Shown here one piece after another: positions 18,912 through 51,449 of a DNA stretch of 64,000 bases. The number at the start of each line of letters is the position of its first letter. The first letter of the stretch is position 1. This DNA is from Dictyostelium discoideum (lineage: Eukaryota): the NCBI GenBank assembly GCA_000004695.1, contig CM000151.3:1504001-1568000 (forward strand). The letters run 5' to 3'. Position numbers and translations under genes: made by a program. The notes beneath the pieces are model-generated. The model saw nothing but the letters and a program-made list of their open reading frames with translations. It was not told the DNA's origin and ran no database searches.

Positions 18912-20243
18912 TTAAAATAATCTTGGATCATTTTTTCTTTCCCAAACAGGGTAACGATTACGATTACAATTATAAAACCATGGTAAAATAGCGACTTCTT
19001 TTTTAAAGAAATCATCCATTGTGCTAATATCTTGAATTTTATAAGCGTGGTCAGATTTTGTTTCTAATAAACGAAGTTCTAATTTTTGAATATTTCCATT
19101 TTGAATGTCATCTGAAAAATTTTTAACATGAGTTTCATTTTTGATACCACATTCAGTACATGATAAATATTTCACCATTTGGAATGGTAAATAACCATAA
19201 TGAGTCATATGCATTCCACCCAGCATATAGTGACCCGAAGTACCACGATTTCTAGATGGTGCTTTAGTTGTTGATTTTGCTCTTTTCAATGTATAAAAAG
19301 TCGGATCACCAAGTGTATATGGATTATTTGGTACTGAATAAAAAGGTTTAAAAACTTGATTAATTGGACCATACGGGAACCAAATACCAATATCAACAAT
19401 ATCAACACTTTTTCTAAATTGGCAATTCTTTAAATAATGTAAATTAATTCTTGCACTGATTTCATCGGTATCGCCAAACCCAATAATATCATCATCACCA
19501 TATTGGTTTGTTCTCTCATTCCAGTATAAAAACTTTTGCCAACGACGAGTTTCCTGATAACTTTCTGCATCGAATAAACCTTTACCATTCTCTTCATCAG
19601 TATCATCTAAAATTAAATGTACAACTTTATCTTGAAATTTAATGAAACGATCTTGAAATTTAACATGTTCCCAAATCAATGGTTTTTTCATTTTATGATA
19701 ATGTGTTACTGTTGATTCGAGAATAAAGAAATGGTCAATAACATCATATAATTCATTTAAATGAACTTCTAAAACATCAATATCGAAACCAATTTGTACC
19801 ATGTGTCCGATTTTAACAGGTTTATCACGTTTACCTGAGAATACTCTTGGATATTTCCCACAAACAGAATTATTAATAATTGGTAAAGGTTCAGGTTTAC
19901 ATGATTCATTAATTGGCACTAATGGCGGTTCAATTAAATAGTTTGATAATGTTAAAATCAACATTTGTGAATATTTATCTGTATTTTCAGTTTTACCAGT
20001 TCTTGCTGCTGCTTTAAAATCCTCCCATGGGAAATTATTCATGTCCTGTGTAAAATTCTTTCCTCTAAATTCATAATCTATATTATAATTTGATACTTGT
20101 TGTTTGTTATTTGATAAGTGATATATATTTTCTGTTTGGTAAACTTTTATAGATTGAGATAGATTTGGTAACAAATAAATCGTGTAGGTCGCCACAAAAA
20201 TTAGACCAATTAAAACAACAATCCTTGCAATTGTGTTGTTCAT
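18912..20243 (-). CDS. Glycosyltransferase family 17 (GnT-III / MGAT3-like beta-1,4-GlcNAc transferase) type-II membrane protein, paralog 1, 443 aa, single exon.
   Basis: N-terminal TM anchor MNNTIARIVVLIGLIFVATYTIYLL. The catalytic region aligns to the MGAT3 blocks: FDIDVLEVHLNELYDVIDHFFILESTVTHYHKMKKPLIW matches DLLDVRFHELGDVVDAFVVCESNFTAYGEPRPLKF, and DDIIGFGDTDEISARINLHYLKNCQ matches DDVFIIDDADEIPARDGVLFLKLYDG. The C-terminus ...WFYNCNRNRYPVWERKNDPRLF is conserved. Confidence 0.8.
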   Translation of the reverse strand: MNNTIARIVVLIGLIFVATYTIYLLPNLSQSIKVYQTENIYHLSNNKQQVSNYNIDYEFRGKNFTQDMNNFPWEDFKAAARTGKTENTDKYSQMLILTLSNYLIEPPLVPINESCKPEPLPIINNSVCGKYPRVFSGKRDKPVKIGHMVQIGFDIDVLEVHLNELYDVIDHFFILESTVTHYHKMKKPLIWEHVKFQDRFIKFQDKVVHLILDDTDEENGKGLFDAESYQETRRWQKFLYWNERTNQYGDDDIIGFGDTDEISARINLHYLKNCQFRKSVDIVDIGIWFPYGPINQVFKPFYSVPNNPYTLGDPTFYTLKRAKSTTKAPSRNRGTSGHYMLGGMHMTHYGYLPFQMVKYLSCTECGIKNETHVKNFSDDIQNGNIQKLELRLLETKSDHAYKIQDISTMDDFFKKEVAILPWFYNCNRNRYPVWERKNDPRLF

Positions 20244-24021: not shown

Positions 24022-25509
24022 TTAAAATAATCTTGGATCATTTTTTCTTTCCCAAACAGGGTAACGATTACGATTACAATTATAAAACCATGGTAAAATT
24101 GCGACTTCTTTTTTAAAGAAATCATCCATACTACTTAATTTTGAAATTTTATGAACATGATCAGATTTTGTTTTTCCTAGACGAAGTTCTAATTCTTGGA
24201 TTTTACCATTTAGAATATCATCTGAAAAATTTGTAATTTGATCCTCTCTTGTTATACCACATTCAGTACATGATAAATATTTCACCATTTGGAATGGTAA
24301 ATAACCATAATGAGACATATGCATTCCACCCAACATATAGTGACCTGAGGTACCACGATTTCTAGATGGTGGGTCAGATTTTGGTTTTGCTTTTGCCTTT
24401 TTCAATGTGTAATAAGTTGGATCACCGAGTGTGTATGGATTGCCTGGTACTGGGTAACCCGGTCTGAAGACTTGGTCAATTGGACCGTACGGGAACCAAA
24501 CGCCAATATCTACAGCATAGATATCTTTAATTTGACAATTCTTTAATAAATGTAAATTAATTCTTGCACTGATCTCATCGGTATCGCCAAACCCGATAAT
24601 GTCCTCATCACCATATAGATTCGTTCTTTTATTCCAGTCTAAGAATTTCTCCCAACGACGGGTTTCCTGATACCTTTCAGCATCAAACATATCTTTACCA
24701 TTCTCTTCATCAGTATCATCTAAAATCAAATGCACCACTTTATCTTGAAATTTAATGAAACGATCTTGAAATTTAACATGTTCCCAAATCAATGGTTTCA
24801 ACATCCTATGATAATGTGTTACTGTTGACTCTATTATAAAGAAATGATCTACAATATCGTATAACTCATTTAAATGAATTTCTAAAACATCAACATCGAA
24901 ACCAATTTGTACCAAGTGTCCGATTTTAACAGGTTTATCACGTTTACCTGAGAATACCTCTGGATATTTCCCACAAACATCATCACTAGGAGTTGGTAAT
25001 GGTTCAGGTTTACATGATTCATTAATTGGTACTAATGGTGGCTCAATCAAATATTTTGCTAATGTTAAAATCAACATTTGTGAATATTTATCTGTATTTT
25101 CAGTTTTACCAGTTCTTGCTGCTGCTTTAAATTCCTCCCATGGGAAGTTTTTCATATCAAGTGGGAAATCTCTTTCATGACCTAAATCTCCAACTATAAT
25201 TTTTTTTGTTTGTTCTGGTGTTGTTGTTAGTGCTGGTGTTGTTGTTGGTTTTGGTGTTTGAGTTTCTGTTGGAGTTTCTGTTGGAGTTTCTGTTGGAGTT
25301 TCTGTTGGAGTTTCTGTTGGTGTTTGGGTTTGTATTTGTGTTTGTGTTGGTGTTGGTGTATGAATTATATCTGTTTTTGAATAATTGTTTGTGGGTTGAC
25401 TGTAACTTGGTAATAAATATACAATAGATGCTAAAATAGTAATGCCAACTAAAACAAAAACCCACAGACGTGTACTGTTTAACATTTTTCTTTTCTTAAT
25501 ATTACACAA
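24022..25509 (-). CDS. GT17 (GnT-III-like) type-II membrane glycosyltransferase, paralog 2, about 487-495 aa, with a Pro/Thr-rich (PTETPTET...) mucin-like stem region.
   Basis: Shares the GT17 blocks with paralog 1 at over 80% identity. Stem TPTPTQTQIQTQTPTETPTETPTETPTETPTETQTPKPTTTPALTTTPEQT. TM MLNSTRLWVFVLVGITILASIVYLL. The true start may be the second Met (25485). Confidence 0.8.
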   Translation of the reverse strand: MCNIKKRKMLNSTRLWVFVLVGITILASIVYLLPSYSQPTNNYSKTDIIHTPTPTQTQIQTQTPTETPTETPTETPTETPTETQTPKPTTTPALTTTPEQTKKIIVGDLGHERDFPLDMKNFPWEEFKAAARTGKTENTDKYSQMLILTLAKYLIEPPLVPINESCKPEPLPTPSDDVCGKYPEVFSGKRDKPVKIGHLVQIGFDVDVLEIHLNELYDIVDHFFIIESTVTHYHRMLKPLIWEHVKFQDRFIKFQDKVVHLILDDTDEENGKDMFDAERYQETRRWEKFLDWNKRTNLYGDEDIIGFGDTDEISARINLHLLKNCQIKDIYAVDIGVWFPYGPIDQVFRPGYPVPGNPYTLGDPTYYTLKKAKAKPKSDPPSRNRGTSGHYMLGGMHMSHYGYLPFQMVKYLSCTECGITREDQITNFSDDILNGKIQELELRLGKTKSDHVHKISKLSSMDDFFKKEVAILPWFYNCNRNRYPVWERKNDPRLF

Positions 25510-25991: not shown

Positions 25992-27455
25992 TTAAAATAA
26001 TCTTGGATCATTTTTTCTTTCCCAAACAGGGTAACGATTACGATTACAATTATAAAACCATGGTAAAATTGCAACTTCTTTTTTAAAGAAATCATCCATA
26101 TTACTTAATTTTGAAATTCTATTAGCATGATCAGATTTTGTTTCTAATAGACGAGATTCTAATTCTTGAATATTTCCTTTTCCAATATCACTTGAAAACA
26201 AGGTAATTTGATCCTCTCTTGTTATACCACATTCAGTACATGATAAATATTTAACCATTTGGAATGGTAAATAACCATAATGAGTCATGTGCATTCCACC
26301 CAACATATAGTAACCTGATTTACCACGATTTCTAGATGGTTTACCATTTTGAATTGCTCCTTTAATTGTGTAATAAGTTGGATCACCGAGTGTATATGAG
26401 TGACCTCTAACAGGGAAATCTGGATTGAAGACTTGGTCAATTGGGCCGTACGGGAACCAAATACCAATATCAATAGCATTGATGCCATCTCTAATTTGAC
26501 AATTCTTTAAATAATGTAAATTAATTCTTGCACTGATTTCATCGGTATCGCCAAATCCAATGACATCATTATCACTATATAGATTTGTTCTCTTATTCCA
26601 ATCTAAAAACTTTTGCCAACGACGGGTTTCCTGATACCCCTCTGCAGCGAATAAATCTTTACCATTCTCTTCATCAGTATCATCCAACACTAAATGCACC
26701 ACTTTATCTTGAAATTTAATGAAACGATCTTGAAATTTAACATGTTCCCAAATCAATGGTTTTTTCATCCTATGATAATGTGTTACTGTTGATTCGAGAA
26801 TGAAGAAATGATCTACAATATCGTATAGTTCATTTAAATGAACTTCTAAAACATCAATATCGAAACCAATTTGTACCATATGTGCAATTTTAACAGGTTT
26901 ATCACGTTTACCTGAGAATACCTCTGGATATTTCCCACAAACATCATCACTAGGAGTTGGTAATGGTTCAGGTTTACATGATTCATTAATTGGTACTAAT
27001 GGTGGTTCAATTAAATATTTTGCCAATGTTAAAATCAACATTTGTGAATATTTATCTGTATTTTCAGTTTTACCAGTTCTTGCTGCTGCTTTAAAATCTT
27101 CCCATGGGAATTTAACCATATCATGTTTGAAATTTCTTTCAGTTTCAAAATCTAATTCTCCAACTGAAAATTTCGATGGTGTTTGAGTTTGAGTTGGTGT
27201 TTGAGTTGGTGTTTGAGTTGGTGTTTGAGTTGGTGTTTGAGTTGGTGTTTGAGTTGGTGTTTGAGTTTGAGTTTGAGTTGGTGTATGAGTTTGAGTTTGA
27301 GTTGGAGTTGGTGAAATTGTAGGTTTTGGTGTATGATATACTGTTGGTTGTTGAACACCATTTATCGATTGAGCAAAATTTGGTAATAAAAATACTATCA
27401 TTGTCATAATTATTAGACTAATGAAGACTAAAATCCAAACACGTGCTTGGTTCAT
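25992..27455 (-). CDS. GT17 (GnT-III-like) type-II membrane glycosyltransferase, paralog 3, 487 aa, with a (TQTP)n stem.
   Basis: TM MNQARVWILVFISLIIMTMIVFLL. Stem PTQTQTHTPTQTQTQTPTQTPTQTPTQTPTQTPTQTPTQTQTP is encoded by a 12-bp tandem repeat (ggtgtttgagtt on the + strand, about 27175..27300). The catalytic blocks are the same as in paralog 1. Confidence 0.8.
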   Translation of the reverse strand: MNQARVWILVFISLIIMTMIVFLLPNFAQSINGVQQPTVYHTPKPTISPTPTQTQTHTPTQTQTQTPTQTPTQTPTQTPTQTPTQTPTQTQTPSKFSVGELDFETERNFKHDMVKFPWEDFKAAARTGKTENTDKYSQMLILTLAKYLIEPPLVPINESCKPEPLPTPSDDVCGKYPEVFSGKRDKPVKIAHMVQIGFDIDVLEVHLNELYDIVDHFFILESTVTHYHRMKKPLIWEHVKFQDRFIKFQDKVVHLVLDDTDEENGKDLFAAEGYQETRRWQKFLDWNKRTNLYSDNDVIGFGDTDEISARINLHYLKNCQIRDGINAIDIGIWFPYGPIDQVFNPDFPVRGHSYTLGDPTYYTIKGAIQNGKPSRNRGKSGYYMLGGMHMTHYGYLPFQMVKYLSCTECGITREDQITLFSSDIGKGNIQELESRLLETKSDHANRISKLSNMDDFFKKEVAILPWFYNCNRNRYPVWERKNDPRLF

Positions 27456-28190: not shown

Positions 28191-29510
28191 TTAAAATAAT
28201 CTTGGATCATTTTTTCTTTCCCAAACAGGGTAACGATTACGATTACAATTATAAAACCATGGTAAAATTGCAACTTCTTTTTTAAAGAAATCATCCATAC
28301 TACTTAATTGACGAATTCTATGAGCATGATCAGATTTTGTTTCTAATAGACGAAGTTCTAATTTTTGAATATCACCTTTTCCAATATCATTTGAAAATAA
28401 GGTAATTTGATCCTCTCTTGTTATACCACATTCAGTACATGATAAATATTTCACCATTTGGAATGGTAAATAACCATAATGAGTCATATGCATTCCACCC
28501 AACATATAGTGACCTGAAGTACCACGATTTCTAGATGGTGCTTTAGTTGTTGATTTTGCTTTTTTTATTGTATAATAAGTTGGATCACCGAGTGTGTATG
28601 GATTACTTGGTACTGGGAAATCTGGATTGAAAACTTGATTAATTGGACCATATGGGAACCAAATACCAATATCAACCATATCAACACCTGATTTTAATTG
28701 ACAATTCTTTAATAAATGTAAATTAATTCTTGCACTGATTTCATCGGTATCGCCAAACCCGATAATATCCTCATCACTATATAGATTTGTTCTTTTATTC
28801 CAATCTAAAAACTTTTGCCAACGACGAGTTTCCTGATAACTTTCTGCATCGAATAAACCTTTACCATTCTCTTCATCAGTATCATCCAAAACTAAATGCA
28901 CCACTTTATCCTTGAATTTTAAAAATCTATCTTGAAATTTAACATGTTCCCAAATTAATGGTTTCAACATTTTATGATAATGTGTTACTGTTGACTCTAT
29001 TATAAAGAAATGGTCAACGACATCGTATAACTCATTTAAATGAATTTCTAAAACATCAACATCGAAACCAATTTGTACCATGTGTCCGATTTTAACAGGT
29101 TTATCACGTTTACCTGAAAACACTCTTGAATATTTTGATGTGCATACTGAATCGTCGATAGGTGGTAATGGTTCAGGTTGACATGATTCATCTATTGGTA
29201 CTAAAGGTGGTTCAATTAAGTAGGTTGATAATGTTAAAATCAACATTTGTGAATATTTATCTGTATTGTCTGTTTTACCAGTTCTTGCTGCTGCTTTAAA
29301 TTCTTCCCATGGGAAGTTATTCATATCATATGTAAAATTCTTTCCTTTTGCTTCATAATCTATATCTGCTATTGAAAATTTTGATTTAGGTCTATAATAA
29401 CTTATTCCACTACTATATACAATTTGATTTATGCTTGGAATAAAATATATCATTAAGGTTAATATACCTAAACCTATAAAAACTAATAACCAAATTCTAG
29501 TACGATTCAT
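28191..29510 (-). CDS. GT17 (GnT-III-like) type-II membrane glycosyltransferase, paralog 4, 439 aa, with no PT stem.
   Basis: TM MNRTRIWLLVFIGLGILTLMIYFI. The catalytic blocks and the C-terminus ...RYPVWERKNDPRLF are conserved. The first 20 bp of 3' flank are identical to those of the other three paralogs. Confidence 0.8.
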   Translation of the reverse strand: MNRTRIWLLVFIGLGILTLMIYFIPSINQIVYSSGISYYRPKSKFSIADIDYEAKGKNFTYDMNNFPWEEFKAAARTGKTDNTDKYSQMLILTLSTYLIEPPLVPIDESCQPEPLPPIDDSVCTSKYSRVFSGKRDKPVKIGHMVQIGFDVDVLEIHLNELYDVVDHFFIIESTVTHYHKMLKPLIWEHVKFQDRFLKFKDKVVHLVLDDTDEENGKGLFDAESYQETRRWQKFLDWNKRTNLYSDEDIIGFGDTDEISARINLHLLKNCQLKSGVDMVDIGIWFPYGPINQVFNPDFPVPSNPYTLGDPTYYTIKKAKSTTKAPSRNRGTSGHYMLGGMHMTHYGYLPFQMVKYLSCTECGITREDQITLFSNDIGKGDIQKLELRLLETKSDHAHRIRQLSSMDDFFKKEVAILPWFYNCNRNRYPVWERKNDPRLF

Positions 29511-29901: not shown

Positions 29902-30360
29902 ATGAAAATTATTAATTATCAAGAGTGTCATCAAAAAGATCTTAAAAAACTTTCATATGAATGGTTAGAAAAATATGTTTCAATTGAACCAATCGATGAA
30001 GAGATGTTGAATAATCCAAAGAGTTTTATTTTAGATGGTGGTGGTCATATATTTATGGCACAACACGGTGAACATAATGAAACTGTAGGAACTGTCTCTT
30101 TAATACAAGTTGATGATAAAACTTTTGAATTAGCAAAATTAGCAGTCACTGAAAAATATCAAGGTTTAAAATTAGGTCAACATTTAATGGAACACTGTTT
30201 AAATGTTGCTAAACAACAAGGTGCAACTAAAGTTATTTTATATACAAATCAAAAATTAACAAAAGCAATTGGATTGTATAAAAAATTCGGATTCATTGAA
30301 ATACCATTAAATAATAATAAATATATAGAATCAGATTTAAAAATGGAATTATTATTTTAA
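29902..30360 (+). CDS. GNAT-family N-acetyltransferase, 152 aa, single exon.
   Basis: GNAT motif A ...LAVTEKYQGLKLGQHLMEHCLNVAKQQGATKVILYTN... (Q/R-x-x-G-x-G/A). Size and β-α pattern are typical. Clean ATG and stop with no intron signals. Confidence 0.75.
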   Translation: MKIINYQECHQKDLKKLSYEWLEKYVSIEPIDEEMLNNPKSFILDGGGHIFMAQHGEHNETVGTVSLIQVDDKTFELAKLAVTEKYQGLKLGQHLMEHCLNVAKQQGATKVILYTNQKLTKAIGLYKKFGFIEIPLNNNKYIESDLKMELLF

Positions 30361-31420: not shown

Positions 31421-34400
31421 ATGAATATTAAATTAAATAATAATGATCAATATAGTGACAGAGATGTTGCAATTATTGGTATTGGCTTTAGGTTACCAGG
31501 TAATAGTAATCGTGGAACAGAATTATGGCAAAATTTATTGAATGGATTTGATGGTATCGTTGAAACATCTGATAGATGGTCAGATTCTTTTAAAGATTTA
31601 GGTGAAATTCATTGTAAAGATGCCGGTTTAGTAGAGTTGGAGGATTGGGAGTCCTTTGATCCAATTCATTTTGGTATTAATCCTGCCGAAGCTAAACAAA
31701 TTGATCCACAACAAAAACTATTATTAAAATCAACATGGGAAGCTTTTGAAGATGCTGGAATTGATCCATTATCATTACGTGGTACATATACAAGTGTATT
31801 CGTTGGAGCATCTTCTTCTGATTATTCAACATCAATGGCAGAGAATTATGAAAAGCCAAACTTTAATGTTTTCAATTCAACAACTGGTAGTATTGCAAAT
31901 AGAATATCATATTGTTTTGATTTTCGAGGTCCATCATTAACTGTCGATACTGCATGTTCAAGTAAGTATTTCTTTTTTTTTTTTCTTTTTTAAAAAGGAA
32001 AGGGTCTAATATTTATATATATATATATTTTTTAAAAAAAAAGGTTCATTAAATGCATGTTTATTAGGTTACAAATCAATTATTGATGGCGAATGTAATT
32101 ATTCAATCGTATCGGGTTGTAATTTTATATTCAATCCAAATATTAGTAGAGGATTTACAACTATTAATATCATTGGTAAAAGTGGTAGATGTAAAGCATT
32201 CGATGAATCAGCTGATGGTTTTGTACGTGCCGAAGGTGTTGCAGTGTTAATATTAAAAAAGTTATCGATGGCAATCAATGATGGTGATCAAATTTATTCA
32301 ATCATTCGTGGTGGTAATTCAAATGTTGATGGTACATTAAATAAAGGTAATTTTATGAAACCATCAAAATCTGCACAATCAAATAATATCATTAAGGCAT
32401 TTGAATCAACAAATGGATCCATTGGACCATCTGATATTGATTTCTTTGAATTACATGGTACTGGTACACCAACAGGCGATCCGATTGAAGTAGAAGCAGT
32501 TTCAGATATTTTTAAGTCTGTCAAATCAAGTTCAAATCCATTATTAATTGGCTCAATTAAATCAAATATTGGTCATTTAGAACCAGCATCGGGTGTTGCA
32601 TCATTAATGAAAATTTGTTTAATGTTTAAACATCGTCAGTTTATTAAAAACATTCATTTTAATAAACCAAATGGTGACATTAAATTTGAAGAATGGAAAG
32701 TTAAAGTATGTACAGAGAATACACCATTCCCACAAAACAAACAAGTATCAATTGCAATCAATAGTTTTGGTATTACTGGTTCAAATGTTTGTTTGCTATT
32801 AAGTGAATATACAAACCAATCTAATGAGGCATCACCATCTACATCATCAACATTATCGCATCAAAATGATATTAAATATTTAATACCAATTTCAGCAAAT
32901 TCCAAAAAATCATTAGATGATATTAAAGAAGATTTAATTAATAATTCATCAGAATTATCAAAGAATTTACCATTTAAAGATTTTATTATAATCAAGTTTA
33001 TTCAAAATCAACAACATTAATCCAAAGATCAGTTATTTTTGCAAATGATTGGAATGATTTAAATTCAAATACTCAAATCATATCAACCAAAGGTAACATG
33101 TCTGGTAATATTGTAAAATCTGCAGGGGACGGTAATAACCAAAATGATCAAGATAATATTCTAGTGTATGTATTTTGTGGCCAAGGACCTCAATGGAATA
33201 AAATGGGCAATCAACTTTATAAAAATTCACCAAAATTCAAAGAAACAATGGATTTAATCGATTCAATACTTGAAAAACATTTTAAATACTCAATTCTATC
33301 AAAATTAAGATCAATCCAAGATGATGATAAAATTAGCATTAATGAACCAACAACGGCACAATCATCAATTTTAATGATTCAAATATCATTATTTGAATTA
33401 TATAAACATTGGGGTATTATACCAACAATCATCGTAGGTCATTCAATTGGTGAAATATCAGCAGCCTATTGTTCAGGTATGATTAACTTAGAAACAGCTT
33501 GTGAAATCATTTACAAAAGAAGTGTACTTCAAAAACAAACAGTTGGATTAGGTAAAATGTTAGCAATTGGATTAAATGAAAAACAATTTAAAGATCAATT
33601 TTCATCATCATTAAAATATTCAAATATCGAAATTTGTTGTTACAATTCACCATCATCAATTGTTGTTTGTGGTGATGAAATTGAATTAGAAAAAATATCA
33701 AATTCATTAAAAGAAAAACAAATATTTTCATTTTTATTAGGATCACCATCACCATACCATTCATCAAAACAAGAATTAATTAATGATCAGGTTTTAGAAT
33801 CAACCAGTAATATTAAATCAAACAAACCAAACATTCCAATATTTAGTACAGTAACAGGTGAATTATTCGAACTTGACCAAGACAATCAATTCAATTCTCA
33901 ATATATTTATGATAATATAAGAAATGCAGTATTATTTGAAAAAGCAATTGAAAACATTTTCAAATACATTGAAACAAATAATCTTGGTAAAAATATTCAA
34001 TTTTTAGAATTATCACCTCATCCAACATTATCACATTATTTAAAAGAGATGATAGCAGTAACAACGACAACAACATCAGATTACTTTCAACAACAATCAA
34101 TATCAGTTCTATCATCATTAACAAGAAATAAAAAGAATCAAAATCAAAATCAACAAAATGAAATGAATCAAATATTAAAATCAATTTCAGAATTATATTG
34201 TAATGGTTTTAATAATGTTAATTTTAAAAGTCAATTAAATGAACCAAGCAGAAATGAAACTATTGAATTTAAAAAAGCATCTTATTATTTACCACATTAT
34301 AAATTTGATGATGGAATTTATTTCACTCAATCACAATCATCATCAAATTATAAAAAGAATGGTTTTTCAACTAATCAATTAGGTATTCGTAATGAACAAT

Positions 34401-37400
34401 CACCATTTATATCATATACATCATTAATTGATATTGCAGAAGAACCATTTAGATTTTTAAAAGGTCACGCAGCAAAAGGTAAAGCATTATTTCCAGGTTG
34501 TGGTTATATTGATAATGTTTTAAGAGCATTCCCAAATAAAGATTTAACAATTAACAGTATGGAATTTAAATCACCATTACAACTATTTGAAGGAGTTAAA
34601 CAATGTTTAACCACAAACATTTATTCAAGTGGTAAAAATGAATACAGAGTTGTATTCAATTATAAAGATAATAAAACTGGTAAATGGATATTATCTGCCT
34701 ATGGTAGATTTACAATAAACAAACATAGTAGTGGTAGTAGTGGTAATATTAGTCAACCTAAAAAAGTTGATATTAATAAATATATTGAAAAATGCAATTA
34801 TACAAAAATTACAAAAAAAGATATTTATGAAGGTGTTAAATTAAAATTACAATTACATTTAACAGGACCATTCCAAATTATTGAAGAGGCATCATATGGT
34901 GACAGTCGTGGATTCTATAAAGTATCATTAAAGGATCCAATATCGAGTTATGACAATCAATTATTTTTAAATGTTTGTATACTTGATGCTTGTTTTCATT
35001 CAATGGCAACGGGTAAAGATAATCAAAATTTAACATTATTCGATAAGGTAGTGAATGGTCAGTTCTATTTCGATAATATTCCAAAATCAGCAATAGAAAG
35101 AGAACAATACCAATATTTATATTGTTATTCTAGATTAATTGCTCAAGTTGGTGATTCACTTTTCGCTAAAATTGTATTAATGTTACCAGATGGAACTGTA
35201 CTATTTAAAACACCATGTGCAGTTTACACTGAAATTAATTCAACAAATAATCAATATAAATTAGAATATCCAAATAATAATTTATATTCAATTGAAAAGC
35301 AATTAATTGATTCTCAATTAAACTCACCATTAATTCAATTTAATCAAATTATTAATTCTTTAGAAAATAATAATAATAATACATACCAATCATTAATTTT
35401 ATTTTATTTATATTCAATTATTAAAAATAATAATAATAATGATTTAACATTAGAAATAATAAATGAAAGTTCAACCGATCAATTAGTTAAAAGTTATTTT
35501 AAAATTAGTGATGATGAAAATGATATAGGAATAATTAATTTATTAAAATCAATATTTGAAATTTTAAAATCAAATATTAATACTTTATTCAAATGTAACA
35601 ATAGTGAAGTAAATAATAAATTAGAAATTAATCAAAAAGATAGTGAAACAATTAATGAATTGATCAAGTTTTTAGTGAATAATAATAAAGAACAACAAGA
35701 ACAACAATTATATACTCCTTATATAAAACAAAATGATATTATTAAAGATATTATAACAAATTCAGTTAAACCAATTTTAAATGAAAAAATTAAATTTAGA
35801 ATATTAGAGATTGGTTGTGGTATTGGTTTATTATCAGAAATCATTATCAATCAAATAAATTTATTATTTAAAGAGAATCCATTATCAGAAATTAGTATCG
35901 AATTCACTTATTCAGATTCAACATTTATACAAGCTGTTAAAGATAAAATTCAACAAATGATTCCAGAATCAACATTATTATCATTTAAAACTTTATTTAA
36001 TACAATTAATGTAAATGAAGATTTATTAGATCAAAATTTCAAACCATCTTATTATGATATTATTATTGTTAATGGTGTTAATTATTTAAATAAAGATAAA
36101 CAACTCAATTCAACAATCAACAATATTAATCAAATTTTAATTTCAAATGGTTATTTAATTATAATGGATACACATTATAAATCAAAAGTAGTCGATAAAC
36201 AAATTGAATTATATGAACAATGGTTATCATTTAATTTTAAATCAAAAAACAACAACAATAATAATAGTTTAACAAATGAACAATGGAATAATTTATTAGT
36301 TAATAAATTAAAATTTAAAGAATTCATATCAACATCATATGAACCATATTTATTAATTGTTCAAAAACCAACAATTGATGAAATCGTATTATCGACTCCA
36401 CAAAATATATCAAAGTTAATATCATCATATGATCAAATTATTAAATTTGATTCAAATTTAGGTCACAAAGATAATATAATTTCAGATATGCTAAACGATG
36501 GTAGTTTTGGTCTTTTAAGAATTACATCAATTGAAGAATTTGAAAAACATGTTGAAGCAAATCCATTGACAGATAGTTCGTTAATTCTTTTCTTTAGTTC
36601 AGTTAACGATTTAAATGAAATTAATTTTAATGAAATTACATTTGAATATATTAAAATCAACCAACATTTATTAAAAACCAAATGTAAATGTAAACATATA
36701 TTAGTTTCAAAGAATTCTCAAACATCTGCTGACGATGAAAATACATGTTCAAACTATTTAGGTACTTCAGTAATTGGTGCATTTAAATACTTTACCGAAT
36801 TTATAGATTTAAATATTTATGCAATTGATTATGGTTCAGATATTTATGAAATTAATTTAAATGATTTAATACTTCATAATGAATTAACAAATCCTTTAAA
36901 ACATATACAAAGAGAATATATTATAAGAGATAATAAAATATATTATGAATTTATAAAGTTAGAATCAAATATTAAAATGAAATATAAATCAAATTCATTC
37001 ATTCAAGATACAAATCAATTAGTATCAAAGATTGTTCCTCAAACATTAGAATTTAAATTATTAGCAAAAAGAGAATTAAAAGAAGATGAAGTCGAAGTTA
37101 AGGTTTTAGCAAGTGGTATTAATTTTAAAGACAATTTAATCTATCGTGGTTTAGTACCAAAAGAAGCAACAAATGAAATAGGTGACTCAACTGATCCACA
37201 AATTGGTTTCGAATGTTCAGGTATTATCACTAGAATTGGTAAAAAAGTAAATAAATTTAAAATTGGTGATTCAGTATTAGGTACTTGTTTTCATACAATG
37301 GCATCACATGTAAATTCAAATCAAGACAGATTTGTATTAAAACCAGATTGTTTATCATATGTCGAAGCTGCTTCAATTCCATTGGTTTATATCACATCAT

Positions 37401-40400
37401 ATTATTCATTATTGGTTCAAGGTGGTCTAAATTTAGAAAGAAATGATGAAGAGACTGTTTTAATTCATTCAGGTACAGGTGGTATAGGTTTAGCAGCAAT
37501 TGAAATATTAAAAGCAATTGGATTTAAATCATTATTATTCGTTACAGTTGGTTCAAAAGAAAAAGAACAATTTTTAAGAGATAGATATGGTTCATTTATA
37601 ACTGAAATTTATTCAACTAGAAACATTGACTATGTTAAAGATATAAAAAAGAAAATTAAAGAAATTAAAAAAGGTAAAGGTAAATTACTCACTCAATATG
37701 GTACATTATCATATGGAGTTGATTTAATTTTAAATACTTTATCAATTGAATTTATGGAATCAAATTTTTTACTTTTAAATCAAGGTGGTCGTATCGTTGA
37801 TTTATCAATCACCCATTTATCAACAACTGAAACAACTGATTATAATAAATTTAAATATTTCGTTGGTTATTCAACTGTTGAAGTAGTATCATTAGGTTTC
37901 TCAAAAGTTAAAGACTCACTTCAAATTGTTGTCAATATGATTAAAGATGGAAAATTAAAATTATTACCAATTATTGAATATCCAGTTAGTGAAATTAAAA
38001 ATGCAGTAGAGTATATTAGTGAAAGAAAACATATTGGTAAAATCGTTGTAAATTTTCAAACTACAAAAGATTTAGTACAAGATATAATTATTAAATCAAA
38101 TAATTCATTTGAAAATAATTATCTATTCCAATCACCTCAATACAATTTAAATAATACAACATTTGGTAATACTATATTAATTACTGGTCAAAAAGGATTA
38201 TCATTAACAATTATTAAATGGATATTATATTATTATCCAAATCAAGATAATAATACCAATAATAGTTTTATTAAAGATATAATAGTTTTATCAAAATCAA
38301 CAATTAATTATGAATTAGAAATTGAAATTGGAAGAGCAAGAAAAAAAGGATTAAAAACAAATATTCATTTTAAACAAGTTGATATTTCAAACAAAAATCA
38401 ATTATTCGAATCAATTGATGAATTATATAAATCAAATAAAGAATTAAAACCAATTGAAACTATATTCCATAATGCATTCGTACCAGTACAATCAGAACCT
38501 GAAGATATTGATTTACAACAATTAGTTGATTCACATGGTGCAAAAATAATTGGCGCAACCAATTTATATGATTATATTACATCAAAAGCTATGGTATTAA
38601 AGAACTATATAATTTCAGCATCAGCAACTTCTATAATGGGTTCAACAAGACAATGTGGTTATTGTTGTGCAAATGCAGTAATTGATTCATTCTCGAAATA
38701 TTTAAGAAGAAAAGGAATTCAATGTTTTTCACTAAAATATTCTCCAATTGAACAAAGTGGATATGTTGCAAGAAATGAATCTGTTGAAAAGCTATTAGCT
38801 TCAACTGGTTTAAATTCAATTTCAATTGGTACAGTTTTAGGTTCAATCGATTTAGCATTACAAAATCAAGATCAACTTAATAATAAATGTATTGTAGGTT
38901 TTGATTTCAAATTATTTTCTAAAAGACCAAATCATCTTCGATATATATTAGATTTCTACACCAATCAATATCAATCAAATAATGATGAATCTAATGATAA
39001 TGACGAATTTTCAATCAAAGATCAAATTTTAAACAAATTTTCAGAGTTATTACAAATTGAAGTTTCAAAGATTAATTTAGATATTAAAATGGTCGACTAT
39101 GGATTAGATTCATTAACAGTTGTAAATTTAAAAACATACTTGGATCAACAATTTTCATTTGGTCCAAATGTTTTATCAATTTCTCAAATTCAAAAAATTA
39201 CAATTGATCAATTATTGAATATTGTAAAAAATGAATTAAATAAAAAATCGAATTATAAAAATAATAATAATAATAAGAAATCAAATCAAAATAAACACAA
39301 ACAAATAATAGGTTCAACAATTAAGTGGGAAAATGAAATAAAATTAGATGATTCAATAATAGTAGATTTAAATGAAGATCAAATTAAAAATTATGAAAAC
39401 AATATTAATAATGAAAATGAAAATATTGTATTATTAACAGATGCAACCAGTTTTATTGGTATTTATTTATTATATGATTTAATAATTTTAGGAAATTATA
39501 AAAATGTTTATTGTTTATTAAATAATAACAATTCAAAAGAAGAAGGATTTAAAACAATCATTCAACTATTAAAAGAATACAAATTATTTGATAAATTAAC
39601 AAATGATCAAATTAATAAAATTGAAATTGTATGTGGTCACTACTCAAAAGAACAGTTTGGAATATCAAATGAAGATTATAATAACTTATCAAATCAAGTT
39701 AATATTATTTTAAATTGTGCAACTGATAGAAATTTAAATAAAAAGTATGAAGAATTTAATGAACAATTAGAAGGTATAAACCAATTTGTTAAATTTTCAT
39801 TCAATAATAAAATTAAGAAATTATTTCATTTATCAGCAATCGGGGTATACCAAGAAGATCCAAATACTGATGATGATTATTATTTACCACCATTGGAATC
39901 AATTGATAATATTAAATCTGGATATTTACAAAATAGAATTGTTCAAGAATATCGTTTAAGAAATGCAAATAAAATTCATGGATTACCAATAATGATAATT
40001 AGATTACCATTTTTATTCTCTGATGATAGTACAGGTATTGGTAGAGATAATGATGTAATTATGCTATTATTACAATCATGTTATATAATGAATACATGGC
40101 CATCAGATTTAGAGAATCAATTATTAAATTTAATACCTGTAACATTTGCAAGCAAATCAATATCATCAATTATTTCATCATTAAATGTTTGGAATCAATG
40201 CAAATCATTATCACCAATTAATAATTTAATTACATTTAATTTAGTTACAAATCAAATTTGTTTAGGTACCATTATGAATCAATTATCAAATGATCTTGGT
40301 TGGCGTAAAATTTCAACATTACAATTCATTAAAAAATTAGATATTTATGATAATGAATCTTGTAAAACATTATCATCTTTTATAAATAAAAAACTTTTCT

Positions 40401-40549
40401 TTAGTTTCTTATCTGTTGATGGTCAGTATAATTTTAATCAAGTTGTCAAAAATGAATTAATTTCAAATAATATATTTAATGGTTATAATGTTGATAAAAA
40501 TTCAATAATCAAACATTTAAGTTATACTTTTAAAAAGAAAATATTTTAA
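31421..40549 (+). CDS. Highly reducing type I iterative polyketide synthase (PKS-A), about 3015 aa if one frameshift is corrected. Exon 1 is 31421..31961, the intron is 31962..32043 (GTAAGT...AAAAAG), and exon 2 is 32044..40549. Approximate domains: KS 31430..32900, AT 33170..34050 (GHSIGE), DH about 34250..35100 (HAAKGKALFPGCGY), cMT about 35700..36400 (LEIGCGIGLLSE), ER about 37050..38050 (LIHSGTGGIGLAAIE), KR about 38150..38900 (ILITGQKGLSL), ACP about 39030..39240 (DYGLDSLTVVNLK), and a C-terminal reductase-like NAD_binding_4 domain 39420..40549.
   Basis: KS N-terminus DVAIIGIGFRLPG and active site DTACSSSL are split by the intron in phase 1. All motifs were read from the translation. There is a 1-bp deletion relative to PKS-B at about 32985 (tttattat versus tttatttat). 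It shifts the frame from 0 (ORF 32244..33020) to 2 (ORF 33098..40549). Confidence 0.8.
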
Positions 40550-43500
40550 ATTAAATATTAATAAATATTATTAAAAAATAAAAAACAAACTTTAAAATGT
40601 TTAAAATATTATCCGTATCTTCATTTTTTTTTTTTTTTTGAATCAGATAATGCAATTGTTGCTTCTCCTTAAGATATTTGTTCTCATTTTATTTAAGAGT
40701 TTATAATTCGATAGGCCTTAATTTTTATACATCCTTAAGATGCTGTTTTTTTTTTTTTTGTCTTTAATTTATACATAATAAATTAAAAAAAAAAAAATTA
40801 AAAAAAATAATATATTCGAACTACACTGTTATCAGTCTAAAATAATCCAATTTCTAAACACAAAATATCATTTTGTGTGTGAGATTTTAAATAGATTTTT
40901 TTTTGGGTCGAAATGATAATAGTTTTTTTAAAAAAAAGGTGTTAAAAAAAAAGAATCCGTTTTTTTTGAAAAGATTTTTTTTTTTTAAAAAAAGGTGGTG
41001 TAAAAAAAAAAAGAATTTTTTATTTGTTTTATTGTAATATAATCTTTTTTGCAAATAAGATTTTTTTTTTTAAGAAAAAAAAAAAAGATTTTTCTGGTGA
41101 GGCAAACGTCAAAAAAATTACTTTCACTTTAATTATTAGTTAGTTTTTTTTTTTATATCTGCAAATTAAATAATCTTTTATCAAGTAACACTAATAATTG
41201 CACTTTTTTTAAATCTTCAAAAAAAAATTTTAATCTCTTTCAAAGATTAATAAACAATCACTTTTTATTGTAAGTGTCTTTTGAAAAAAAAAAAAAAAAA
41301 AAAAAAAGAAAAATCTATTTTCATTTAATAAAAAAATAAAATAATTTATTTTCATTCTATTAAACAAAAAAACTATTCTATTTTAAATATTATTATTAAT
41401 TAAATTTAATATTTATTTTTAATTAATTATTTGTTTTTTTTTTTTTCCCATATATATAATGGATATTAAATTAAAAAATAATGATAAATATAGTGACAGA
41501 GATGTTGCGATAATTGGTATTGGCTTTAGATTACCAGGTAATAGTAATCGTGGAACAGAATTATGGCAAAATTTATTGAATGGATTTGATGGTATCGTTG
41601 AAACATCTGATAGATGGTCAGATTCTTTTAAAGATTTAGGTGAAATTCATTGTAAAGATGCTGGTTTAGTAGAGTTGGAGGATTGGGAGTCCTTTGATCC
41701 AATTCATTTTGGTATTAATCCTGCCGAAGCTAAACAAATTGATCCACAACAAAAACTATTATTAAAATCAACATGGGAAGCTTTTGAAGATGCTGGAATT
41801 GATCCATTATCATTACGTGGTACATATACAAGTGTATTCGTTGGTGCATCTGCTTCTGATTACTCAACATCGATGCCAGAGAATTATGAAAAGCCAAACT
41901 TTAATGTTTTCAATTCAACAACTGGTAGTATTGCAAATAGAATATCATATTGTTTTGATTTTCGAGGTCCATCATTAACTGTCGATACTGCATGTTCAAG
42001 TAAGTATTTCTTTTTTTTTTTTCTTTTTTAAAAAGGAAAGGGTCTAATATTTATATATATATATATTTTTTAAAAAAAAAGGTTCATTAAATGCATGTTT
42101 ATTAGGTTACAAATCAATTATTAATGGAGAGTGTAATTATTCAATCGTATCAGGTTGTAATTTTATATTCAATCCCCATATTAGTAGAGGATTTACAACT
42201 ATTAATATCATTGGTAAAAGTGGTAGATGTAAAGCATTCGATGAATCAGCTGATGGTTTTGTACGTGCCGAAGGTGTTGCAGTGTTAATATTAAAAAAGT
42301 TATCAATGGCAATCAATGATGGTGATCAAATTTATTCAATCATTCGTGGTGGTAATTCAAATGTTGATGGTACATTAAATAAAGGTAATTTTATGAAACC
42401 ATCAAAATCTGCACAATCAAATAATATCATTAAAGCATTTGAATCAACAAATGGATCCATTCAACCATCCGATATTGATTTCTTTGAATTACATGGTACT
42501 GGTACACCAACAGGCGATCCGATTGAAGTAGAAGCAGTTTCAGATATTTTTAAGTCTGTCAAATTAAGTTCAAATCCATTATTAATTGGCTCAATTAAAT
42601 CAAATATTGGTCATTTAGAACCAGCATCGGGTGTTGCATCATTAATGAAAATTTGTTTAATGTTTAAACATCGTCAGTTTATTAAAAACATTCATTTTAA
42701 TAAACCAAATGGTGACATTAAATTTGAAGAATGGAAAGTTAAAGTAAGTACAGAGAATACACCATTCCCACAAAACAAACAAGTATCAATTGCAATCAAT
42801 AGTTTTGGTATTACTGGTTCAAATGTTTGTTTGCTATTAAGTGAATATACAAACCAATCTAATGACGCACTTACCATAACATCATCAACATCACCAACAT
42901 TATCAAATGATTTTAAATATTTAATACCAATTTCAGCAAATTCCAAAAAATCATTAGACGATATTAAAGAAGAGTTAATTAATAATTCATCAGAATTATC
43001 AAAGAATTTACCATTTAAAGATTTTATTTATAATCAAATTTATTCAAAATCAACAACATTAATCCAAAGATCAGTTATTTTTGCAAATGATTGGAATGAT
43101 TTAAATTCAAATACTCAAATCATATCAACCAAAGGTAACATGTCTGGCAATTTTGTAAAATCTGCCGAGGATGGTGGTAACCAAAATGATCAAAGCAATG
43201 ATAATATTCTTGTTTTTGTATTTTGTGGCCAAGGACCTCAATGGAATAAAATGGGCAATGAGCTTTATAAAAACTCACCAAAATTCAGAGAAACAATGGA
43301 TTTAATCGATTCAATTTTTGAAAAACATTTTAAATACTCAATTCTATCAAAATTAAGATCAATCCAAGATGATGATAAAATTAGCATTAATGAACCAACA
43401 ATGGCACAATCATCGATTTTAATGATTCAAATATCATTATTTGAATTATATAAACATTGGGGTATTATACCAACAATCATTATAGGTCATTCACTTGGTG

Positions 43501-44024
43501 AAATATCAGCAGCCTATTGTTCAGGTATGATTAACTTAGAAACAGCATGTGAAATCATTTACAAAAGAAGTACACTTCAAAAACAAACAGTTGGATTAGG
43601 TAAAATGTTAGCAATTGGATTAAATGAAAAACAATTTAAAGATCAATTTTCATCATCATCAAATGTTGAAATCGTTTGTTACAATTCACCATCATCAATT
43701 GTTGTTTGTGGTGATGGAATTGAATTAGAAAAAATATCAAATTCATTAAAAGAAAAACAAATATTTTCATTTTTATTAGAATCACCATCACCATACCATT
43801 CATCAAAACAAGAATTAATTAAAGATCAAGTTTTAGAATCAACCAATAATATTAAATCAAACAAACCAAACATTCCAATATTTAGCACAGTAACAGGTGA
43901 ATTATTCAAACTTGGCCAAGACAATCAATTTAATTCTCAATACATATATGAAAATACTAGAAATGCAGTATTATTTGAAAAAGCAATTGAAAACATTTTC
44001 AAATACATTGAAACAAATAATCTT

Positions 44025-44160
44025 GGTAAAAATATTCAATTGGTAAAAATATTCAATTGGTAAAAATATTCAATTGGTAAAAATATTCAATTGGTAAAAA
44101 TATTCAATTGGTAAAAATATTCAATTGGTAAAAATATTCAATTGGTAAAAATATTCAATA
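44025..44160. repeat. Tandem array of a 17-bp unit ggtaaaaatattcaatt: 7 perfect copies plus 1 terminal variant. It sits at the deletion/inversion junction inside PKS-B.
   Basis: Units begin at 44025, 44042, 44059, 44076, 44093, 44110, 44127 and 44144. The unit is present once in the intact paralog (PKS-A 34012..34028, ..cttggtaaaaatattcaatttttag..). Confidence 0.9.
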
Positions 44161-44693
44161 TTGTAAATTTACCATGTGCAGATAATATCCATTTACCAGT
44201 TTTATTATCTTTATAATTGAATACAACTCTATATTCATTTTTACCACTTGAATAAATGTTTGTGGTTAAACATTGTTTAATTCCTTCGATTAATTGTAAT
44301 GGTGATTTAAATTCCATACTATGAATTGTTAAATCTTGGTTTGGGAATGCTCTTAAAACATTATCAATATAACCACAACCTGGAAATAATGCTTTACCTT
44401 TTGCTGCGTGACCTTTTAAAAATCTAAATGGTTCTTCTGCAATATCAATATATGATGTATATGATATAAATGGTGATTGTTCATTACGAATACCAAGTTG
44501 ATTAGTTGAAAAACCATTCTTTTTATAATTAAATACCGATTGTGATTGAGTGAAATAAATTCCATCATCAAATTTATAATGTGGTAAATAATAAGATGCT
44601 TTTTTAAATTGAATAGTTTCATTTCTGCTTGGTTCATTTAATTGACTTTTAAAATTAACATTATTAAAATGACAATTTTCATATATGTATTGA
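44161..44693 (-). other. Inverted (minus-orientation) fragment of the PKS DH-domain coding sequence inside PKS-B.
   Basis: Reverse-complement translation gives ...NEPSRNETIQFKKASYYLPHYKFDDGIYFTQSQS..FRFLKGHAAKGKALFPGCGYIDNVLRAFPN.DLTI.SMEFKSPLQL.EG.KQCLTTNIYSSGKNEYRVVFNYKDNKTGKWILSAHGKFTI. It is collinear with PKS-A 34190..34715. Confidence 0.85.
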
Positions 44694-47600
44694 CAATTAT
44701 ATACTCCTTATATAAAACAAAATGATATTATTAAAGATATTATAACAAATTCAGTTAAACCAATTTTAAATGAAAAAATTAAATTTAGAATATTAGAGAT
44801 TGGTTGTGGTATTGGTTTATTATCAGAAATCATTATCAATCAAATAAATTTATTATTTAAAGAGAATCCATTATCAGAAATTAGTATCGAATTCACTTAT
44901 TCAGATTCAACATTTATACAAGCTGTTAAAGATAAAATTCAACAAATGATTCCAGAATCAACATTATTATCATTTAAAACTTTATTTAAAACTATTAATA
45001 TAAATGAAGATTTATTAGATCAAAATTTCAAACCATCTTATTATGATATTATTATTGTTAATGGTGTTAATTATTTAAATAAAGATAAACAACTCAATTC
45101 AACAATCAATAATATCAATCAAATTTTAATTTCAAATGGTTATTTAATTATAATGGATACACATTATAAATCAAAAGTAGTCGATAAACAAATTGAATTA
45201 TATGAACAATGGTTATCATTTAATTTCAAATCTAACAACAACAACAATAATGATAATTTAACAAATGAACAATGGAATAATTTATTAGTTAATAAATTAA
45301 AATTTAAAGAATTCATATCAACATCATATGAACCATATTTATTATTTGTTCAAAAACCAACGATTGATGAAATCGTATTATCAAGTCAACAAAAGATATC
45401 AAAGTTAATATCATCATATGATCAAATTATTAAATTTGATTCAAATTTAGGTCACAAAGATAATATAATTTCAGATATATTAAATGATGGTAGTTTTGGT
45501 GTTGTAAGAATTACATCAATTGAGCAATTTGAAAAACATGTTGAAACAAATCCATTGACAGATAACTCGTTAATTCTTTTCTTTAGTTCAGTTAACGATT
45601 TAAATGAAATTAATTTTAATCAAGTTACATTTGAATATATTAAAATCAATCAATATTTATTAAAGACCAAATGTAAATGTAAACATATATTAGTTTCAAA
45701 GAATTCTCAAACATCTGCTGACGATGAAAATACATGTTCGAATTATTTAGGTACTTCAGTAATTGGTGCATTTAAATACTTTTCAGAATATATTGATTTA
45801 AATATATATTCAATCGATTATGGTTCAGATATTTATGAAATTAATTTAAATGATTTAATACTTCATAATGAATTAACAAATCCTTTAAAACATATACAAA
45901 GAGAATATATTATAAGAGATAATAAAATATACTATGAACATTTAAAATTAGAATCAAATATTAAAATGAAATATAAATCAAATTCATTCATTAAAGATAC
46001 AAACAAATTAATGACAAAAGTTGAACCTCAAACATTAGAATTTAAATTATTAGCAAAAAGAGAATTAAAAGAAGATGAAGTCGAAGTTAGGGTTTTAGCA
46101 AGTGGTATTAATTTTAAAGACAATTTAACTTATCGTGGTTTAGTACCAAAAGAAGCAACAAATGAAATAGGTGATTCAACTGATCCACAAATTGGTTGGG
46201 AATGTTCAGGTATTATCACTAGAATTGGTAAAAAAGTAAATAAATTTAAAATTGGTGATTCAGTATTAGGTACTTGTTTTCATTCAGTAGCATCACATGT
46301 AATTACAAATCAAGATAGATTTGTATTAAAACCAGATTGTTTATCATATGTCGAAGCTGCTTCAATTCCATTGGTTTATATCACATCATATTATTCATTA
46401 TTGGTTCAAGGTAATTTGGATTTTGAGGGTGATGAAGAGACTGTTTTAATTCATTCAGGTACAGGTGGTATAGGTTTAGCAGCAATTGAAATATTAAAAG
46501 CAATTGGATTTAAATCATTATTATTCGTTACAGTTGGTTCAAAAGAAAAAGAACAATTTTTAAGAGATAGATATGGTTCATTTATAACTGAAATTTATTC
46601 AACTAGAAATACTGACTATGTTCAAGATATAAAAAAGAAAATTAAAGAAATTAAAAAAGGCAAAGGCAAATCACTCACTCAATATGGTACCTTATCATAT
46701 GGAGTTGATTTAATTTTAAATACTTTATCAATTGAATTTATGGAATCAAATTTTTTACTTTTAAATCAAGGTGGTCGTATCGTTGATTTATCAATCACCC
46801 ATTTATCAACAACTGAAACAACTGATTATAATAAATTTAAATATTTCATTGGTTATTCAACTGTTGAAGTTATGACACCAAGTTTCTCAAAAGTTAAAAA
46901 AACACTTCAAATTGTTGTCAATATGATTAAAGATGGAAAATTAAAATTATTACCAATTATTGAATATTCAGTTAGTGAAATTAAAAATGCAGTAGAGTAT
47001 ATTAGTGAAAGAAAACATATTGGTAAAATCGTTGTAAATTTTCAAACTACTGAAAATGTAGTACAAGATTCAATTATTAAATTAAATAATTCATTTGAAA
47101 ATAATTATCTATTCCAATCACCTCAATACAATTTAAATAATACAACATTTGGTAATACTATATTAATTACTGGTCAAAAAGGATTATCATTAACAATTAT
47201 TAAATGGATATTATATTATTATCCAAATCAAGATAATAATACCAATAATAGTTTTATTAAAGATATAATAGTTTTATCAAAATCAACAATTAATTATGAA
47301 TTAGAAATTGAAATTGGAAGAGCAAGAAAAAAAGGATTAAAAACAAATATTCATTTTAAACAAGTTGATATTTCAAACAAAAATCAATTATTCGAATCAA
47401 TTGATGAATTATATAAATCAAATAAAGAATTAAAACCAATTGAAACTATATTCCATAATGCATTCGTACCAGTACAATCAGAACCTGAAGATATTGATTT
47501 ACAACAAATTATTGATTCAAATAGTGCAAAAACAATTGGTGCAATCAATTTATATGATTATATTAGTTCAAAAGCTATGGTATTAAAGAATTATATAATT

Positions 47601-51270: not shown

Positions 51271-51449
51271 GAAAAAAATGAAAATAAAAATAGAATAATA
51301 ATAATAAAAATAAAAATAAAAATAAAAAAAATATTAAAAATTAAAATAAAAATAAAAATAAAAATAAAATAAAATTAAATTAAAACGGTTTAAGATTAAA
51401 AAGATTATTAACATATATGCTTTTTCTGTAAGATTATAATATATTTTAT

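Follow-up and report, generated by a model that had tools for sequence, protein, structure and literature searches.

Introduction

The window analysed here is a stretch of 64,000 nucleotides of Dictyostelium discoideum AX4 chromosome 2, and it contains two neighbouring polyketide synthase (PKS) copies on the plus strand, which we call PKS-A and PKS-B. An initial annotation, made from the letters of the window, had proposed that PKS-A carries a 1-bp deletion relative to PKS-B in the KS-AT linker, that this is either a sequencing error or a sign that PKS-A is non-functional as well, and that, if the deletion is real, neither copy encodes a full-length synthase. The question raised by this locus is whether the missing base is a lesion of the gene or a fault of the reference sequence. 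The window was identified as AX4 by ORFs identical to XP_645232.1, XP_645233.1, XP_645228.1 and XP_645221.1; the four AX4 proteins identical to window ORFs are DDB_G0272420, DDB_G0272276, DDB_G0272170 and a GNAT acetyltransferase.

Results and Discussion

Gene structure and predicted domains of PKS-A

PKS-A begins directly downstream of an acetyltransferase gene, which served as an anchor for finding the orthologous loci, and its parts in the window are the following.

29902..30360, plus strand: GCN5-related N-acetyltransferase gene, directly upstream of PKS-A
31421..31961, plus strand: PKS-A exon 1, from the ATG to the first base of a split Ser codon (DTACSS/S)
31962..32043, plus strand: PKS-A intron, 82 nt, GTAAGT...AG, 13% GC
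32044..32985, plus strand: PKS-A exon 2 up to the frameshift, rest of KS and the KS C-terminal extension, frame 0
32982..32990, plus strand: frameshift site at codon 494/495, TTTATTATA in AX4 and TTTATTTATA in PKS-B and all orthologs
32986..40549, plus strand: remainder of PKS-A in the -1 frame, with AT, DH motif, cMT, ER, KR, ACP and terminal reductase, natural stop at 40547-40549
33018..33020, plus strand: premature TAA in frame 0, after the out-of-frame tail ending in KDFIIIKFIQNQQH

The frame runs on across the intron, giving DTACSSSLNA, and an equivalent intron is present in PKS-B (42000..42081) and, as gaps of 82-90 nt, in the orthologs. When the intron was removed and one T was inserted, the sequence gave 3015 codons with no internal stop, just as the initial annotation had expected of a single added base.

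In this corrected protein the order is KS-AT-DH-cMT-ER-KR-ACP-terminal reductase. The KS was located at residues 14-386 (Pfam ketoacyl-synt 1.4e-68; Ketoacyl-synt_C 1.2e-27) with the motifs DTACSSS at residue 176, HGTGT at 318 and SNIGH at 354, and the AT at 555-885 (Acyl_transf_1 1.3e-45) with GQGPQW at residue 560 and GHSIGE at 646. The DH was recognised by the motif HAAKGKALFP at residue 989, without a Pfam hit, and the cMT by a weak Pfam methyltransferase match at 1430-1581. Pfam also placed the ER at 1861-2183 (ADH_N/ADH_zinc_N_2), the KR at 2257-2417, the ACP at 2497-2590 (ACP_SdgA_C, with GLDSL at 2534) and a terminal reductase at 2645-2887 (NAD_binding_4). The continuous KS-AT-DH-cMT-ER-KR-ACP series of the initial annotation is thus obtained after one added T, with the DH by motif, and it has to be extended by the C-terminal reductase, which had been left out. 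From its sequence PKS-A is predicted to be a full-length, maintained gene of 3015 codons with one intron for an iterative highly reducing type I polyketide synthase.

The frameshift site

In the deposited sequence PKS-A lacks one T at window position 32986, where it reads GATTTTA-TTATAATC and PKS-B reads GATTTTATTTATAATC; the AX4 letters of 32980-33004 are gattttattataatcaagtttattc. The PKS-B string quoted in the initial annotation occurs once in the window, at 43020-43045 (0 occurrences expected by chance). Global alignment of the collinear blocks of the two copies gave a single 1-bp gap, at A 32986 and B 43027, and this is the sole frame-changing difference within these blocks. The remaining unpaired gaps are 3, 6, 9 or 12 bp long, and the few gaps of 1, 2, 4 and 11 bp stand in adjacent pairs, either cancelling each other or summing to a multiple of three.

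The split of the ORF was also found as described, with a frame 0 ORF at 32244..33020 ending in the TAA at 33018 and a second ORF at 33098..40549 (2483 aa), the downstream frame having a TAA at 32975 and being open from 32978. Read as deposited and spliced, PKS-A would stop after codon 505 with the tail KDFIIIKFIQNQQH, that is, the product would be cut after the KS plus 11 out-of-frame codons. Codon 494/495 comes after the KS C-terminal extension of Pfam (389-484) and before the AT (555-885), which places the site in the KS-AT linker. In this segment, residues that are invariant across dictyostelid paralogs (38-48% identical) stand both before the site (F35, F38) and after it (Q42, K46, L50, Q52, I56, W61), which argues that the ancestral gene was read through the site in one frame. 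One detail of the earlier description had to be dropped, namely that the base is missing from a T-run, since the run is just T3 within TTTATTTAT.

The site in other assemblies

Orthologous loci were fetched by means of the neighbouring genes from the assemblies that PRJNA1300491 produced in 2025 from Nanopore and Illumina data (PMC12745789). Over about 41 kb the assembly GCA_054883475.1 shares 99.6-99.8% identity with the window, and the differences are almost all in the lengths of intergenic homopolymers. Its sequence at the site is TTTATTTAT, with the T in place, and the gene is called as a protein of 3015 aa. Bases specific to PKS-A are retained on both sides of the site, a G 11 bp downstream and a T 53 bp upstream; the corresponding markers of the window are CAAGTT at 32993-32998 and GATTTA at 32931-32936. 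An origin of the T of this assembly by gene conversion or by mis-polishing from PKS-B was rejected, since these PKS-A-specific markers flank the site. We infer by elimination within PRJNA1300491 that this assembly represents AX2-214. Its WGS accession prefix, consecutive with those of the other new assemblies, ties it to that project, in which the D. discoideum isolates CR116C and OT3A are diverged from AX4 and only AX2-214 is not so described (PMC12745789).

In two diverged D. discoideum assemblies, about 95% identical here, the T is likewise present and the gene models are intact (3037 aa and 3032 aa). A PKS remnant of the sister species D. cf. discoideum reads FKDFIYNQIYSK, in frame and with the T, and PKS-B of the window itself carries the T at 43027. 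The lesion of PKS-A was thus not reproduced in GCA_054883475.1, in the two wild isolates or in the sister species, and among the assemblies examined the T gap is private to the AX4 reference. The KS and the AT, which lie in different frames in deposited AX4, are in the same frame in the three other D. discoideum assemblies.

When the corrected PKS-A was compared with the two wild orthologs (2433 and 2036 codons), dS was about 0.10 and dN/dS was 0.20 and 0.24. Indels occur in multiples of three throughout these alignments, no stops were found, and the catalytic motifs are all kept in the corrected protein. Against these two orthologs no relaxed constraint, in the form of a dN/dS nearing 1 or of extra stops and frameshifts, was seen. 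The low dN/dS, the multiple-of-three indels and the lack of stops show that PKS-A is not an old pseudogene, and that its lesion is either extremely young or not real. Outside AX4, PKS-A is intact and constrained.

Error in the reference or mutation in AX4

The gap most likely reflects an error of the reference or else a change that AX4 alone carries, and is an ordinary matter. The two alternatives of the initial annotation hold up, and the T in a near-identical assembly and in the relatives, together with the purifying selection, narrows the choice between them. In our view the T was probably lost through a Sanger base-calling or assembly error, with no biological lesion behind it. The Sanger-era AX4 chromosome 2 reference would have dropped one T of TTTATTTAT by base calling or in assembly, and the tandem paralog, 95% identical, would have complicated the assembly of the region. 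Over the coding sequence of PKS-A, only four positions distinguish AX4 from the presumed AX2 assembly.

32863: A in AX4, C in presumed AX2, Gln/Pro
32986: no base in AX4, T in presumed AX2, frameshift
36244: A in AX4, C in presumed AX2, synonymous, Ser
38256: C in AX4, A in presumed AX2, Thr/Asn codon, mirrored at PKS-B 47242

At 32863, 32986 and 36244 the wild strains side with the presumed AX2 and AX4 is the odd one out. Both of the AX4-private substitutions, 32863 and 36244, are changes of C to A beside an A-run, and they are likely to be further base-call errors of the reference. Nuclear mutations have been measured to arise at 2.9e-11 per site per generation (PMC3466296); at this rate the probability of at least two spontaneous substitutions in 9 kb is about 3e-4 even at 1e5 generations. 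With so low a mutation rate, several AX4-private differences in one gene make reference errors the more economical reading. The presumed AX2 assembly is itself not error-free, as seen from its pattern against AX4 at 38256 and 47242. Around this C/A difference PKS-A and PKS-B are 100% identical over 201 bp, and the same change at both paralogous positions points to a systematic error or to gene conversion in one of the assemblies. A literature search found no published error rate for the AX4 reference; the remark that errors exist in the reference is found in the literature.

A real and very recent deletion, which arose in the AX3/AX4 lineage after its split from AX2 and made AX4 a null for this PKS, is the main competitor, and we regard it as unlikely. 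The gap does stand in the deposited AX4 sequence, and the otherwise perfect ORF with its low dN/dS is what a very young lesion would look like. The T3 is no classic error-prone homopolymer, and real mutations clustered locally could account for the three differences private to AX4, which lie within 3.4 kb. The AX3 strain came out of a chemical mutagenesis, and this could have raised the local mutation density. However, nitrosoguanidine typically gives G:C to A:T transitions, and the changes seen here are C to A transversions and a 1-bp loss. The two further AX4-private changes in the same 9-kb coding sequence, moreover, are far above what the measured spontaneous rate would give. The lack of an AX4 protein model at the locus speaks for a real deletion as well as for a reference error, and it fits a treatment as pseudogene by the curators (PMC9618038; PMC3188802 Table S6, in all rows but row 12). 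No record was identical to the 2483-aa ORF, to the truncated spliced product of 505 aa or to any of five versions of the frame 0 ORF with alternative starts, which means just that such products have not been deposited. Short queries across the site, used in homolog searches, retrieved no near-identical fragments among hits of at most about 1.75 times their own length.

According to a further reading, PKS-A would be an old, decaying pseudogene like PKS-B, the frameshift being one sign of a long-standing loss of function. The instability of the locus speaks for it, as PKS-B is rearranged, the D. cf. discoideum copy is heavily deleted and PKS remnants occur in the wild strains. Nevertheless, PKS-A has a single disruption in its 3015 codons in a genome of 78% AT, and its dN/dS of 0.20-0.24, its indels in multiples of three only, its complete catalytic motifs and its intact state in three other D. 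discoideum assemblies leave this reading very improbable and effectively refuted.

Least credible of all, to the point of being negligible, is a bypass of the frame change in AX4, in which an unannotated intron or a programmed -1 ribosomal frameshift would still yield the full-length protein: 58 formal frame-restoring GT..AG pairs exist around the site, but none of the 58 has the GTAAGT donor of the real intron of the gene, their GC content is coding-like (23-28% vs 13% in the real intron), each is only 32 nt long or removes at least 65 codons conserved in frame in orthologs and paralogs, no slippery heptamer X XXY YYZ was seen by eye in the 40-nt rescue window 32978-33017, and the relatives encode the region in one frame. 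With all 58 pairs enumerated and none of them credible, intron rescue was rejected, as was programmed -1 frameshifting on account of the heptamer search and the single frame in the relatives. The earlier statement that no GT..AG intron candidate spans the site holds for credible candidates and not for formal ones.

PKS-B and the structure of the locus

PKS-B consists of two blocks collinear with PKS-A, which are separated by a repeat and an inversion.

41459..44041, plus strand: PKS-B 5' block, exon 1 41459..41999, intron 42000..42081, KS to most of AT, collinear with A 31421..34002
44023..44159, plus strand: perfect 17-bp tandem repeat in 8 copies, TTGGTAAAAATATTCAA, at the inversion breakpoint, disrupting the frame
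44159..44669, minus strand: inverted segment of about 0.5 kb, reverse complement of A 34207..34717
44693..49529, plus strand: PKS-B 3' block, cMT/ER/KR/ACP/R, collinear with A 35704..40549, with an open 1527-codon ORF at 44946..49529

The segment corresponding to A 34718..35703 (about 1 kb) is deleted from PKS-B. The lesion of PKS-B is reproduced in the independent assembly, with the same repeat, inversion and split models. There the same 8 repeat copies were found (L006 3381..3516), PKS-A and the orthologs having a single copy, and the PKS-B of the presumed AX2 is represented by split gene models of 840 aa, 213 aa (minus strand, the inverted segment) and 1527 aa. The 1527-aa ORFs of the presumed AX2 and of AX4 are identical except for a single residue, encoded at 47242. 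PKS-B is a real pseudogene: the claim that it is broken was borne out by the repeat, the inversion and the deletion, all of them reproduced in the second assembly. The retained blocks contain 0 stops and have an omega of 0.30-0.39 against PKS-A, which suggests that the rearrangement is fairly recent. The broader conclusion that neither PKS copy is full-length holds for PKS-B; as regards PKS-A, the T in the other assemblies and the purifying selection confine it at most to the AX4 strain or reference, and it does not extend to the species.

The 17-bp repeat TTGGTAAAAATATTCAA is derived from coding sequence (LGKNIQ) and coincides exactly with the left breakpoint of the inversion in PKS-B. It may be the footprint of the rearrangement mechanism.

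The PKS locus is structurally polymorphic across the D. discoideum isolates and D. cf. discoideum. The diverged isolates have short PKS remnants between the acetyltransferase gene and the intact PKS (L004 10977..12075; L005 10868..12648), and these are either a 5' end fused to a 3' end or a 3' end only. The D. cf. discoideum locus (L001 9291..14666) has a single PKS copy with an inverted exon-1 fragment and internal deletions of about 3 kb.

Relation to known polyketide synthases

From their chromosomal position between DDB_G0271xxx and DDB_G0272859, we take PKS-A and PKS-B to be probably pks11 and pks12. The PKS family of AX4 has been described as 40 genes plus five pseudogenes with interrupted ORFs (PMC9618038), the count of 40 genes being that of Zucko et al. 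2007 in the passages of PMC3188802 and PMC12745789 that cite it. The locus is missing from all rows but row 12 of the published list of 40 AX4 PKS genes, and these rows have no entry of the size or neighbourhood of PKS-A (PMC3188802 Table S6). By elimination from these rows of Table S6, PKS-A and PKS-B appear to be two of the five catalogued pseudogenes.

PKS-A resembles the iterative type I PKSs of the same organism in its KS-AT-DH-cMT-ER-KR-ACP(-R) architecture and its length of about 3000 aa, and highly similar tandem paralogs such as PKS-A and PKS-B are typical according to descriptions of the pks family. Nothing categorical separates PKS-A from the known pks family of D. discoideum; what is added is that its lesion is one base without a counterpart in the second assembly of a laboratory strain or in the wild isolates. 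The domain order and motifs of PKS-A also match those of fungal highly reducing PKSs with C-terminal reductive release (ACP_SdgA_C plus NAD_binding_4), and its ACP matches a model built on the highly reducing PKS SdgA, whereas the dictyostelid PKSs form a clade of their own in the literature.

PKS-A is also like the cases in which a single-base error of a reference, or an indel private to a strain, appears as a pseudogene: one base is missing from a constrained ORF. As in the reference-error cases, independent assemblies of the strain itself or of a sibling strain lack the lesion, and other isolated base differences are private to the older Sanger reference, the error itself being probable in the case of PKS-A. 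The finding is already known in kind; what is added here is small, namely that the defect of PKS-A is a single base and private to the AX4 reference.

Consequences for annotation

The pseudogene status of PKS-A may be a reference artefact or specific to AX4. The locus is treated as dead in AX4; it is intact and under selection in the presumed AX2-214 and in wild D. discoideum. Since PKS-A is intact and selected elsewhere, it should be counted among the potentially functional PKS genes of D. discoideum. Transcriptomic or knockout surveys based on AX4 may miss it. Should the missing T be real and fixed in AX3/AX4, which seems doubtful, AX4 would be null and AX2-214 intact in one functional highly reducing PKS, these being the laboratory backgrounds of D. 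discoideum in widest use. The two strains would then be a natural knockout pair for finding the product of the enzyme, and a ready-made difference in secondary metabolism between AX4 and AX2. The finding on PKS-A matters mainly for annotation and has no broader conceptual consequence.

Neighbouring genes

Upstream of the PKS pair four Glyco_transf_17-like paralogs, 86-88% identical to one another, stand in tandem on the minus strand between 18912 and 29510.

18912..20243, minus strand: Glyco_transf_17-like paralog
24022..25509, minus strand: Glyco_transf_17-like paralog
25992..27455, minus strand: Glyco_transf_17-like paralog
28191..29510, minus strand: Glyco_transf_17-like paralog

This glycosyltransferase-like array is followed by the GNAT acetyltransferase gene that adjoins the PKS pair. 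Downstream of PKS-B, on the side of the minus-strand gene, secondary BLAST hits revealed two direct paralogous segments, 51433..52913 and 53983..55452, which are about 80-83% identical.
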